Positions 30,001-33,000 of a stretch of 64,000 bases of DNA are shown here, piece after piece. Source of the stretch: a plasmid; NCBI RefSeq assembly GCF_988243305.1, contig NZ_OZ547139.1. The stretch is one strand, 5' to 3'. The first letter of the stretch is position 1, and every line of letters starts with the position of its first letter. A program made the position numbers.

Positions 30001-33000
30001 GATCGTCAATTTTGGTGTGCCCGTCTGAGCTGAAGCGCACCCAGCCACTGCGCCAGACATCGAGCAACGGCGCGATGATGATACGCTTGCCAAACATGCA
30101 GGGGTTATTGGTTTTATAATCCCACGACAGGGATTTAAAGATATCAATCAGCCCTTGCGTGAAGGTATCGGCCTTACTTGCGTTCAGGTGCCGGAACGTG
30201 CTCATAACGTTCTCCAGCGTTATCGGCGGCATTTCTTCGCCTGCCACCTGCCGATCCCATTCCTGACGTTGTTTGTTGCTCATCAGCGTATACATGCCGG
30301 TTTCCGACATCAGCCGATCCCAGATTTTTCCGTCGATAACGCGGGAAATAGCCGTTTCGGCCTGGTCTGGTCTGGTGTCGCTCCATTTGATCGCGCTCTC
30401 TACGGCTTTGTCGTAGTCATACAGGTACTGACAGCCTCCGGCCTGCTGCATCAGATCGCGCGCTTTTCGCAGCTTGTCTATGCCGTCGAGATAGACGCGA
30501 ATACCTTCATTCCGCAACGAGATAATGCGCTCAATAGCAATGGACGGGATCACTTCACCGCCATGCTGGCAGGACATCAGATCGACCGACGGGAGAGTTT
30601 TTTCAGATGACATTTCAGACTCCTGCGCCATGCGGGGCGCTACCGTAAGGGGTGAACAGGGCTGGCAATGCCAGCCCATCAATGATTATTTGCAGCGCTG
30701 AAGCAGTTTACTGACCTGCTCGGCCAGCGCATACGTGGACGCATACGGGCCACTTAAACGACGGTTAGGGATTTCGTTGAGGGCATACAGGCACGCCTTC
30801 AGCAGCGCATCTTTCTGCGTGTCCAGTTCAGCTTTAAGCTGGGAGGGGGTCAGTGCTTTACTCATAATTTGTTACTCCTGCGCCAGTCGGGGCGCTACCG
30901 CGAAAAGCCTCATTGCCTCTCGATGTGATTATTATACGTCTAATGAGCCACATCAATCAAGCGTTATCTGATTAATTTTCTTTGTTTTTTCCCGGACTCC
31001 TTTCCCTGTAAATTTTGCTTTTCAGATCCCCATCAGCCCGATGAAGGTGCTTTGCCGGCATGGTGCAGGGGTTCAGGCATCAGACACTAGCGATAGCCCG
31101 AAACCCCGCAGGGGGTTCGGCGGAGCTGCCAGGCCTTGCCTGGCTAGCGGAGTGTGGCTGACGACTGCCCGACGGGCAGGAGCCGAAGGGGCCCAGAGGT
31201 GTTTTAGTACGGCAGGCCTGCCAGAAAACGCCGGCAACTGAGCAGAAATGAACAGGGAAGACACGCTGTGCGGGCGTCAAAATTAAGTTAACTGGCAGAC
31301 ACCAGGGCGGGATCACATCAGAAAGGGCCAGAATAGGGGGCAGGACTCGTCAAAGTCACAAAAACGATGATGGGTACAGGTTTTTTAAATGCGCGCCCAG
31401 AGAGCGGCTCAGAGCGTTTCAGGGCAATACGGGTTCGATGCCCGTATTGCCCTGCAGGCGGCAACCACCGCGTCAGCCTTCAGCTCCGGCCAGATAGCGG
31501 CTTAGCCCCTCACGGGAAGCCAGCACCGACGCTCTGAACTGCGGTTCGCCGTCACCCAGCGCCTTCAGCTTCTCCACGATATTGATCATCGGCGCGGCAG
31601 TACGCTGCTTATAATTCTCGATGTCGGCTGCATATTTCAGTAATGCCATATCACTCGCCTCCTCAGCTGGCAGGTAATCACGCAACCACAGCGCATCTGC
31701 GAACGGATCTATCAGCTTTTGCAACGCTTCAGCCGTTGCTTCGAGCGCCCGCCTGTCGGTTTTGATGGTGCCTGTCTCCGGATCAACACACTTCCCTTCC
31801 CAGCACTCAGGTACAAACGACTCCCGGTAATGAAAACCGTTGTCACCGTTTTCCGCACAGGCCAGTAGGTTCTCGATGCTTTCAGGGGTTCTGTGCCGTA
31901 ACATCCTGGCCGTTGCCATACCGATCGCATTAATCATGATGCCATGCAGTCCCAGCGCCTCCTGACGGTACTCCGCGGCGATATCATCCTGGGCAATATC
32001 ATTCCAGCGCATCGCCTGCGCCCAGGCAGTCCAGAGTCTTTCTGCCATATCACGCTGTTGCGGCGAGGGAATGCTGTTGGCCCGCAGGTTGAGCATTTTT
32101 TTCGTCGCATCGTTCAGCGCTTTAAAGCTGATAAGCCGTGAGCTTTTTGCCGGGACCACGTTGTGTTCAAAATCCACTGTGCCCGCCAGCCCGGTGACGG
32201 TTCGGGCCAGATGCATTGCCAGCTGGTTGACCGGATCATTGTTGTTATATGCCATACTGATCGCCGCTGCCGGTTTGCTCGCGTTGTTATTAATATCAGC
32301 GAAAAACTGCTGGCGTAACTCAAGTGGCAGGCCAACGGTAAGCAATAAGCTGATCGTATCTTCCGTGTTGGAATAATCGCGTACAAATTCAAAAATACCC
32401 AGCGCACGGTGCTGGCCATCGAATAATTTTAAATCAGCGTCCATCGGAATTTTAAGAATACCGACTGCCGGCGAGAGTTCGCTGGGAAGGAATTCAACAT
32501 GACTATCAATATTTCCGGTAATTGACGGCAAAATATAGGGAGCTCGTTTTGATGTTGCGCCGGCAACATAATTCCGTATTTTTTTGGCCCGCGTTTTGTT
32601 CGCTTCTCGCTGGCTGCGATCCATAACATCGCCATCATTGTCCATTGCGAGAATACGACGTAACACGACCATAGGAACCGTCAGCATGTATTGTTCTATG
32701 CCGCCCTGTATTCCGCGTGTGGCCGGGACTCTGAAAAAATAGTTATCAGTATTCATAATATTTCCTTCGTATATCCGATACGTTCAGGAAGCACGTTTGC
32801 GCGTCGGTGTTTTGCGCGGCTATTTCCAGATCGGCGGTAAGCCGGCATCGATGCATAGGACACACCAGACGGAATACGCGATGTCACTTTCTCCGTTCAC
32901 CCAGCGGCGCACCGTTCTGCCGTTCACGCCAACATGTCGCGCCAGCCCCTCCTGACTGAGGTTGAGCACATTTTCCAGCAGATAGCGGAGTTCATCCCCC

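Follow-up and report, generated by a model that had tools for sequence, protein, structure and literature searches.

How the incoming strand of a conjugative plasmid is primed, converted and expressed in the first minutes is an active question, and both the classes of single-stranded DNA (ssDNA) promoters and a replication roadblock have been defined as recently as 2023–2026. The class 1 (ssp1) elements Frpo/ssi1-3 of F and ColIb-P9 are located on the T-strand, in intergenic gaps of the leading region, where they work only as folded ssDNA, a roughly 330-nt imperfect hairpin reconstituting the -35 and -10 boxes. In F, the stem-loop ssp2, which is itself a promoter hairpin, is a replication roadblock resolved by UvrD and influences complementary-strand synthesis (Fraikin, Yamaichi and Lesterlin, 2026 preprint, bioRxiv 10.64898/2026.01.09.698686). 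The element described here, M2, shares with Frpo/ssi its strand, its location and, probably, its action as folded ssDNA; like ssp2, it would be a leading-region ssDNA structure upstream of the loci affected. However, it is a ~120-nt junction of five helices that shows no sequence homology to Frpo/ssi and reconstitutes no -35/-10 boxes, and, unlike ssp2, it lacks any promoter feature, does not occur in F and shows conservation of mismatches and junction bases that would be superfluous in a pure barrier.

M2 was found in a 64-kb stretch of an IncL/M resistance plasmid (the window, i.e. the whole of the DNA analysed) that is identical here to pNDM-HK. A sequence-only reading had proposed a GC-rich non-coding gap of about 500 bp (30966-31472) carrying a cluster of hairpins on the transferred strand. 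The gap, located in the leading region, in fact starts at 30866, its first 97 nt being a functional promoter and 5'UTR, and is a composite intergenic region (Table 1). It is richer in GC than the leading region (56.4% for 30966-31472 against 52%), the only truly GC-rich part being M2 (69.7%). The hairpins are real; they are not spread over 500 bp and form two discrete elements, M2 and M3, with unstructured spacers between. Folding z-scores against shuffled sequences are +0.9 for 30963-31075, -0.9 for 31195-31330 and 0.0 for 31300-31419, better-than-shuffle folding within the gap being limited to M2 and M3. Spacer 1 carries CTCCTTTCCCTGTAAATTTTGC (30997-31018), which is found again upstream of further copies of M1 and, in inverted orientation, close to oriT.

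Table 1. Features of the gap and its surroundings (positions in the window).
Feature	Position	Strand	Remarks
Downstream operon	29753-30865	-	59-aa ORF (30686-30865) and DUF4942 gene (29753-30682); driven by M1
M1	30866-30962	-	Promoter and 5'UTR leader of the 59-aa ORF/DUF4942 operon
Spacer 1	30963-31075		Without structure
M2	31076-31194	+ (transferred-strand sense)	Five-helix element; covariance model R1, covariation
M2 P0	31076-31081/31188-31193	+	
M2 P1	31082-31087/31154-31159	+	A.G at 31084/31157
M2 P2	31098-31107/31111-31120	+	
M2 P3	31125-31134/31138-31148	+	
M2 P4	31165-31170/31174-31179	+	
M2 conserved junctions	GACGA 31160-31164; GAGCCGAAGG 31180-31189	+	Also GGCGGAGC
Spacer 2	31195-31419		Without structure; IncL/M-specific; fast-evolving (82.7% identity in pSEIL-3)
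M3	31420-31454		Perfect 14-bp hairpin, 7-nt loop TTCGATG; 18 nt past the DGQHR stop codon
DGQHR/DndB-family gene	31473-32756	-	427 aa; its stop codon is the gap boundary

To the left of the gap lie mobA/traI and oriT-type inverted repeats, every leading gene is on the '-' strand, and the layout is like that of ColIb-P9. This synteny, rather than a mapped nic site, points to '+' as the transferred and template strand, in agreement with the earlier prediction. Transcription downstream of the gap comes from M1, a sigma-70 promoter on '-' (-35 TTGATT at 30960-30955, -10 TATAAT at 30936-30931, start site at 30924) that is one of at least nine copies in the leading region. M1 corresponds in part, by exact sequence match, to NDM-sR5b (30924 to 30870, '-'), whose start site was mapped by 5'RACE and which is also documented by Northern blotting (PMC5880898). 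This is one of the NDM-sR5a-d "sRNAs" of pNDM-HK (Kong et al. 2018); it originates from the same gap but belongs to M1, as a promoter-proximal 5'UTR, and not to the hairpin cluster. The sRNA-seq of pNDM-HK reported six sRNAs, none of them over M2 (PMC5880898). A promoter scan of the gap returned M1 and one overlapping weaker match, both on '-', and no conserved '+' promoter. M1 was also considered as a hairpin-type ssDNA promoter; since its nine copies share no conserved complementary arm, it is treated as an ordinary double-strand promoter.

M2 (119 bases) contains the first three hairpins of the sequence-only reading, namely CCGAAACCCC/GGGGGTTCGG (31098-31120, with one A.G mismatch), GCTGCCAGGC/GCCTGGCtAGC (31125-31148) and CTGCCC/GGGCAG (31165-31179), all of which are real and conserved with compensatory changes. 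The fourth, GGCAGGCCTGCC (31217-31228), is a loop-less palindrome that lies outside the conserved element and is supported by no homolog. Covariance model R1 aligns to 31076-31194 on '+' over model positions 1-122 (105 bits, E = 3e-20), a full-length match with P0-P4. The covariance search in related plasmids that had been suggested shows M2 to be conserved across 38 distinct copies, whose helices contain 90.4% standard pairs (34–51% in slid controls), both sides having changed in 17 of the 32 pairs. On four of five covariation measures none of 500 shuffles equals the observed alignment, and one of 500 does so on the fifth; a MAFFT-based alignment also shows covariation. For example, pair 11/90 of P1 is A-T in 17 copies, C-G in 19 and T-A in one, and is never broken, and in the E. 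coli and ColIb variants pairs of P0 and P1 are flipped and P3 is rebuilt with its T.T mismatch retained. A.G and T.T mismatches are conserved non-canonical pairs of the element, the T.T of P3 in other copies being represented by a bulged T in the window. The wobbles reveal which strand folds, as there are 14 G.T in P1-P4 and an invariant T.G in P0, versus only two or three A.C cells; the hairpin core thus has the properties of an element specific to one strand, with '+' sense. The loops are GNA triloops in which G and A are fixed and N varies (A in 33 copies, G in four and C in one for CC-GNA-GG), and C-GNA-G caps P2 in 16 of 38 copies; such triloops are reportedly hyperstable in DNA. Folding of both strands, also suggested earlier, places M2 and M3 above shuffled sequences, but the single-sequence z-scores of M2 are modest (-2.6) and similar for the two strands. 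Taken together, the five helices form two stacked three-way junctions, and M2 is a discrete, selectively maintained and strand-specific module.

Other folds were considered and rejected. An alternative helix given by RNAalifold (columns 10-13/132-135) was set aside in favour of P1/P0, pair 11/90 being standard in 26 of 26 sequences with three pair types versus 20 of 26 for the alternative. Another one, GGCT/AGCC (91-94/125-128), is broken by a T-to-C change in Phytobacter that keeps P1. The GGCTGACGA junction was also considered as a hammerhead-like CUGANGA motif, an idea abandoned since the majority of copies have CTCGACGA and Rfam returns nothing.

M2 is carried by plasmids in 2701 of 5426 complete E. 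coli genomes, where it occupies 6196 plasmid places versus 54 chromosomal ones, and by at least 5000 PLSDB plasmids, 82% of the PLSDB matches being conjugative plasmids. Its occurrence is restricted to the leading regions of conjugative plasmids from enterobacteria (IncL/M, IncFII, IncFII(K), IncI1 and Pantoea/Erwinia plasmids), where it invariably lies on the strand that templates the leading genes and within ~12 kb of oriT. A first pattern scan of genome contigs was too loose, about 80 of 105 stretches being chance matches from unrelated phyla; the loci kept from it are from Enterobacterales only, both nhmmer and the covariance model having recovered them. M2 usually lies 80-110 nt past a Frpo-type promoter and adjoins Frpo/ssi elements in IncFII, IncFII(K) and IncI1 plasmids; in the window, where R1 finds a single copy flanked by genes on '-', it lies 115 nt past M1. 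Some plasmids carry several copies, embedded in larger duplicated units that contain Frpo. Within IncL/M, M2 is conserved at 99.2% in pSEIL-3 versus 83–91% for its flanks, and it has decayed in a non-mobilizable relative. The homology of IncL/M to other plasmid families is limited exactly to the structured unit. Between F and IncFII there is a clean cassette swap, with flanks ~98% identical, and neither R1 with filters off (leading region) nor a 13-mer search retrieves M2 from F. The PGAP annotation of some E. coli plasmids places "hypothetical proteins" across M2. Rfam 15 gives nothing over M2 (cmscan of 29000-34000, E ≤ 1), no match over the copies of three further loci (L003, L108 and L026) and only PK-repBA in the whole window at the gathering threshold. 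Full-text literature searches with conserved M2 12-mers returned no relevant paper.

M3, a conserved hairpin distinct from M2, is situated at the 3' end of the DGQHR gene. It corresponds to the last stem noticed earlier, which is real and perfect but had been placed at 31411-31452 with 12 bp, whereas it has 14 pairs (31420-31433/31441-31454; z = -7.3 on '+' and -6.6 on '-'). Its conservation in pSEIL-3 is 100%, against 82.7% in the neighbouring spacer; in the non-mobilizable pW08291 it has decayed. An intrinsic terminator was rejected, no T/U tract following on either strand (the next sequence is AAACGCTCTG on '-' and CAGGCGGC on '+'), as was a tRNA or tRNA-like gene: an ARAGORN scan of the window gives neither a tRNA nor a tmRNA, and the likeness to a T-arm on '+' is limited to the loop and its closing pair. 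A T-loop motif search did not find M3 at other M2 loci.

The best reading of M2 is that of a putative ssDNA signal recognised by a protein, since the conservation of its mismatches and junction bases points to specific recognition and not to mere stability. The GNA loops, the lack of a '+' promoter, of a reported sRNA and of an Rfam match favour ssDNA over RNA. It is proposed tentatively, as a possibility falling short of probable, that M2 is a cis-acting structured element that works as ssDNA on the transferred strand, as a candidate signal for priming or primosome loading. This function is favoured, and a polymerase barrier is its main rival. IncL/M plasmids, which hold M2 in a single copy and have no Frpo-like element to supply primers, speak for priming; in IncF and IncI plasmids it would seem redundant, because the adjoining Frpo elements already make primers, and F functions without a recognisable M2. 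The constant place of M2, just upstream of promoters in the direction of polymerase travel, would fit a barrier or insulator equally well. M2 would then be a programmed ssDNA structure that stalls the DNA and/or RNA polymerase coming from the distal operon and keeps the next promoter region single-stranded and unperturbed. It does invariably separate the end of an operon from the promoter element that comes next, it is preceded in an IncFII plasmid by a terminator-like hairpin of the distal operon on '-' (7261-7273), it is 70% GC, and ssp2 provides a precedent in F. Stability alone would nevertheless suffice for a roadblock, which leaves the conserved A.G and T.T mismatches and unpaired junction bases superfluous; the predicted stability of M2 is just moderately above that of shuffled sequences; and the promoter to be protected in IncL/M is a double-strand one that gains nothing from staying single-stranded. 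A barrier is considered unlikely.

Expression of M2 as a structured '+'-sense non-coding RNA, which would be antisense to the leading genes and transcribed once the plasmid is double-stranded, is distinctly unlikely, even though a multi-helix junction with conserved non-canonical pairs resembles a functional RNA and the strand that folds is of '+' sense. IncF leading regions do contain antisense RNAs (AS-pc01 matches), and at seven of 33 loci M2 is followed on '+', at a distance of 13-150 nt (mostly 117-150), by a hairpin with a T-run behind it. The window, however, has no '+' terminator after M2, no promoter-like site on '+' precedes M2 either there or in IncF loci, the pNDM-HK transcripts and Rfam are silent as described above, and the loops are not GNRA/UNCG tetraloops. 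M2 might also be a selfish or recombinationally mobile cassette (MITE/PATE-like, or a gene-conversion module) of no benefit to the plasmid, its strand bias resulting from spread as ssDNA. The sharp limits of the IncL/M homology, the clean F/IncFII swap and the presence of several copies on some plasmids agree with this origin, which is made very unlikely by purifying selection that is strong and accompanied by compensatory changes and conservation of junction bases, by the absence of visible target-site duplications and terminal repeats, by the inclusion of within-plasmid copies in larger duplicated units, and by the restriction to leading regions, with a single copy in 64 kb here. The main idea of the sequence-only reading, a Frpo-like ssDNA promoter for the 59-aa/DUF4942 operon, has in its favour the position of M2 upstream of genes templated by the T-strand; relatives of M2 adjoin Frpo elements, and two "Frpo*" candidates (Samuel et al.) include part of M2 at their distal end. 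It now appears highly improbable. M2 is not a Frpo-like promoter because it has no -35/-10 boxes and no Frpo homology: a blastn search of the whole window (word size 7, E ≤ 0.01) with six known or candidate Frpo/ssi sequences (ColIb Frpo1, F ssiD, Frpo'1, Frpo*1, *4 and *5; Samuel 2024, suppl. table 2) gives no match, and folding the gap or M2 as DNA yields nothing but short GC-rich helices, with no long imperfect hairpin rebuilding a promoter. Furthermore, the operon has its own start site, 150 nt off at M1, the F ssiD fragment with Frpo activity ends ~100 nt before the position of M2 and so excludes it, and M2 is absent from F, where the newer class 2/3 promoters are reportedly conserved. 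M2 is thus not itself a promoter. Decay of a coding sequence, also considered by that reading, could be argued from the ORFs of 48-78 aa that overlap the gap and from the PGAP annotations over M2, but is scarcely credible: as the same reading held, the gap has no credible ORF, its five small ORFs matching nothing in Pfam or NCBIfam, homologous copies differ by 1-, 2- and 4-nt indels, which are not multiples of three, and the stem substitutions are compensatory.

Returning to the priming signal, the following scenario can be proposed. As the T-strand enters the recipient, M2 would fold and remain free of SSB. A conserved host protein would recognise its branched, fork-like shape and its fixed junction bases, and M2 would load a primosome through PriA-type assembly of DnaB/DnaG. 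Complementary-strand synthesis would then begin at M2 and proceed back toward oriT, converting the ~7 kb in which this plasmid, devoid of Frpo, has its repeated double-strand M1 promoters.

It is quite possible, although somewhat below an even chance, that M2, for which no description was found, represents a previously unrecognised class of ssDNA control elements on a large share of enterobacterial conjugative plasmids, i.e. a fork-mimicking junction that would either bring in a host factor for replication restart or priming, or stall polymerases by design. If so, it would set the time and place at which the incoming strand becomes double-stranded and couple this conversion to early expression of anti-defence genes, and alternative cassettes, such as that of F, would tune this behaviour. 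Sharply defined, supported by covariation and strand-specific, M2 occurs on plasmids of half of the complete E. coli genomes and also on the pOXA-48 and pNDM carbapenemase plasmids of IncL/M. It offers a concrete 119-nt experimental target, and IncL/M is a clean test system because it has one M2 copy and no Frpo. Should M2 control establishment, it would also be a possible point of attack against the spread of resistance plasmids.

Several folded ssDNA signals of other replicons can be compared with M2. The ssoA-type origins of rolling-circle plasmids and the M13 minus-strand origin are strand- and orientation-specific and have conserved unpaired motifs, a host enzyme starting the complementary strand; they are recognised by RNA polymerase via promoter-like hairpins. 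Unlike them, M2 has no AT-rich -10-like segment, the sequence comparison having been made via Rfam. The signals of the phages G4 (priming by DnaG alone) and phiX174 (primosome assembly through PriA binding and ATPase activation on SSB-coated ssDNA) are, like M2, compact ssDNA hairpin clusters of about 100-140 nt that are free of SSB, a property that M2 would share. With filters off, R1 gives at most 6.8 bits on the G4 genome and no match on phiX174 at E ≤ 10. The CTG start triplet of the G4 type, located 3' of hairpin I, is not conserved in M2, the P1-P4 junction reading CTG in some M2 copies and GGCTCGACGA in most, and the GCCGAAG heptamer common to M2 and phiX174 may be due to chance. PriA sites have no strict sequence consensus. 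G4 oric has three terminal hairpins, the same number as M2, and the phiX174 site contains a GNA-type minihairpin (GCGAAGC), as does the branched and hairpin-rich M2.

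The gap at 30866-31472 holds three elements: a promoter module with its 5'UTR (M1), a five-helix element (M2) and a hairpin (M3). The small ORFs that it contains have no protein-family match, and indels among homologous copies are not multiples of three, in line with the sequence-only reading, which had seen no credible ORF there. The hairpin cluster described in that reading is real but confined to two discrete elements, M2 (69.7% GC; fold z = -2.6 vs shuffles) and M3, a perfect 14-bp hairpin (z = -7.3) that is the strongest inverted repeat from 23.7 to 40 kb. The spacers between elements fold no better than shuffled sequence, and the palindrome GGCAGGCCTGCC, which had also been singled out, is unsupported and lies outside the conserved part.

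Outside IncL/M, M2 is the only part of the gap with relatives. A set of 38 distinct copies (Klebsiella, Raoultella, Pluralibacter, Entomohabitans, Buttiauxella, Phytobacter, Pantoea and Erwinia contigs, an E. coli IncFII plasmid and ColIb-P9) supports five helices: P0 closes the element, P1 is stacked on P0 and closes a junction with hairpins P2 and P3, and P4 branches between P1 and P0. In the MAFFT alignment, standard pairs occupy 89.7% of cells and 14 of the 32 pairs show both-side changes; these values were reached by none of 500 shuffles, and slid controls pair at 34-53%. A model-based alignment gives 90.4% and 17 of the 32 pairs. Covariation in related plasmids, proposed earlier as a check, was therefore found across the 38 copies. 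For example, P1 pair 11/90 is A-T in 17 copies, C-G in 19 and T-A in 1, and is never broken. In the E. coli and ColIb variants, pairs 1/138, 7/94 and 12/89 are flipped and P3 is rebuilt from a different sequence with its T.T mismatch kept. The A.G mismatch of P1 is invariant (G.A in one copy), and the junctions GGCGGAGC, GACGA and GAGCCGAAGG are nearly so. The competing helices returned by RNAalifold had weaker support than those chosen.

Coordinates of the elements of the gap and of related features
Feature	Position	Strand	Remarks
M1	30866-30962	-	sigma-70 promoter TTGATT-18-TATAAT and conserved 5'UTR
M1 copy starts	26383, 27307, 27808, 28285, 28601, 29565, 30866, 34353, 35889		'+' coordinates
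NDM-sR5a-d	34407->34353, 30924->30870, 29621->29569, 27359->27305		NDM-sR5b = 30924->30870
M2	31076-31194		helices P0-P4
M3	31420-31454		hairpin
oriT-type inverted repeats	24150-24232		pNDM-HK annotation
Leading-region genes right of oriT repeats		all -	ssb, antirestriction gene, DUF1380, Hha, DUF4942, DGQHR, HTH, RadC/JAB, DUF3085
F alternative cassette (L002)	~13400-13520	-	at the position of M2 in the IncFII plasmid L111 (7005-7138); ColIb plasmids likewise carry M2 there

pNDM-HK (NC_019063.1) shares the whole 607-nt gap at 100% identity, as do other IncL/M plasmids; in further IncL/M-type records (63-89 kb) identity is 97.5-98%. In pSEIL-3 (IncL/M), M2 is 99.2% identical, its sole change lying in a loop, and M3 100%, vs 91.2% and 82.7% for the spacers. 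In pW08291, a non-mobilizable IncFIB plasmid (L113 2700-2790), two thirds of M2 are deleted and the remainder is mutated, M3 carries uncompensated changes and the DGQHR gene is mostly deleted; this single case fits a constraint lost along with conjugation. M3 itself is restricted to IncL/M. On '+', its loop and closing pair, G-TTCGATG-C, fit the T-arm consensus of tRNAs; no tRNA was called and the motif is absent from the other loci compared. A similar hairpin, GGGGGTTCGATGCCCGC, ends the 'Frpo*1' candidate of an insect-metagenome plasmid.

In the pNDM-HK annotation, the relaxase gene traI and mobA lie on '-' at ~21.2-23.7 kb. As the layout of relaxase, oriT repeats and '-' leading genes mirrors that of nikAB and the leading genes in ColIb-P9, '+' is probably the transferred, template strand, as the sequence-only reading had it, an assignment based on synteny rather than on a mapped nic site. 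Elsewhere in the window, a PK-repBA pseudoknot (Rfam RF01089, 118 bits; 12-135 '-') marks the IncL/M replication-control region, and sub-threshold 'rimP leader' matches on both strands at 33628-33733 correspond to a GC hairpin with AT flanks, AAAAGCCCG-ttaaat-CGGGCTTTT, which lies between the genes for RadC/JAB and DUF3085 and is probably a bidirectional terminator.

M1 (~95 nt) is present in at least nine copies, each before leading-region genes. Four of them match exactly the published 'sRNAs' NDM-sR5a-d, which look like mRNA 5' leaders and not independent sRNAs. For NDM-sR5b, 5'RACE on an established transconjugant located the start site (PMC5880898), so the operon downstream of the gap is served by an ordinary promoter with experimental support. 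The leader carries a conserved hairpin, GCGCC-agtcgg-GGCGC, adjoining the ribosome-binding site. Several copies have the motif CTCCTTTCCCTGTAAATTTTGC upstream of their -35 box; it may thus be a shared regulator-binding site. A 25-nt stretch of the gap (30991-31015 '+') has an exact inverted copy in the oriT region (24328-24352 '-'), which overlaps a palindrome at 24321-24340. In one IncL/M record (L114 1321-1548, an extended equivalent of window 30686-30865), a small ORF after M1 is named 'cobalamin biosynthesis protein CbiX', probably a mis-annotation since the ORF in the window has no family match.

Among 5426 complete E. coli genomes, 2701 carry relatives of M2 (median 2 per genome; 6196 plasmid and 54 chromosomal places), as do at least 5000 PLSDB plasmids, 82% of them conjugative among the matches listed; the window has a single copy. 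At all loci examined, M2 lies on the template strand of the flanking genes, at most ~12 kb from oriT. In plasmids of the IncFII(K), IncFII, IncI1 and Pantoea types, a Frpo/ssiD-type or 'Frpo*' element precedes it, with M2 80-110 nt further 3' on the T-strand; two 400-nt 'Frpo*' candidates of Samuel et al. terminate inside M2. In ColIb-P9, M2 is found ~440 nt upstream of two gene starts, ssb at 28321 and an ORF at 35334, the sites to which the published AJ238399 coordinates map Frpo3 and Frpo2. The F plasmid has no recognisable M2: its flanks are ~98% identical to those of the IncFII plasmid, and a different cassette of ~115 nt occupies the exact M2 position, ~100 nt after the end of the functional ssiD fragment. 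This cassette begins GGGATGGAAGCCCGCCAGGGCGGAGACA, and Frpo*6 of Samuel ends with the same start. This points to modules that can be exchanged at positions distal to Frpo. A Phytobacter-type M2 opens a contig assigned to a Cereibacter sphaeroides MAG (L093 1-94), which is probably a mis-binned enterobacterial plasmid fragment.

M2 is thus a folded element of the leading region that is conserved, strand-specific and maintained by selection; it is neither promoter nor coding. G.T wobbles on '+' (14 cells of P1-P4 and an invariant T.G in P0, vs 2-3 A.C cells) indicate that the '+' sense folds. Nothing points to a '+' transcript: M2 has no '+' promoter (window and IncF loci), no terminator (window) and no Rfam family, and none of the sRNAs reported for pNDM-HK lies at M2. 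The loops obey the DNA-specific GNA-triloop rule, with CC-GNA-GG at the 3' junction (N = A 33, G 4, C 1) and C-GAA-G, C-GGA-G or C-GCA-G capping P2 in 16 of the 38 copies; GNA triloops are reportedly hyperstable in DNA. In the IncFII plasmid, the distal operon has a terminator-like hairpin on '-' (7261-7273) that comes before M2, which is therefore probably outside that operon's mRNA. Taken together, these data favour a role as '+' sense ssDNA on the entering T-strand. In Pantoea, Klebsiella and Entomohabitans plasmids (L065, L108, L025, L063, L003), a small hairpin with core GCGTCAGC and then a T-run on '+' lies 117-150 nt 3' of M2; it may be a terminator on '+' or a further ssDNA module of the T-strand. 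The IncFII(K) plasmid L003 also has sub-threshold matches to Rfam AS-pc01, the antisense RNA of pHK01 (8215-8314 and 5414-5508 '+'), between leading-region genes and antisense to them.

Stability alone would require neither mismatches nor unpaired bases to be conserved, so the ssDNA is presumably recognised by a conserved protein. Primosome loading or priming is the favoured candidate function, a tentative reading held with a confidence of about one third. Complementary-strand synthesis would then start early at M2, ~7 kb from oriT, and would switch on the leading genes, since IncL/M plasmids have no Frpo primer source and use double-strand promoters. PriA prefers branched substrates, and the two stacked three-way junctions of M2 are of similar form, which also fits this reading. 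The strongest competing reading, a barrier or insulator resembling ssp2 of F, is favoured by the constant position of M2 just before promoters. Then follow, in falling order of likelihood, a '+' sense RNA, a mobile cassette, a Frpo-like promoter and decayed coding sequence. The sequence-only reading had proposed a single-strand initiation site or a Frpo-like ssDNA promoter, with a structured ncRNA as alternative; as to the promoter, the window has no Frpo-like sequence, judged by six known or candidate Frpo/ssi queries, and the downstream operon is served by M1.

None of the papers searched mentions the conserved sequences of M2, which could nevertheless have been described earlier within a larger 'ssi' fragment in the older literature on R100 and F ssi signals. 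Three ssDNA promoter classes (Wen et al. 2025) and one roadblock have been described so far. M2 matches none of them, and F, in which classes 2 and 3 are reportedly conserved, carries another cassette in place of M2.
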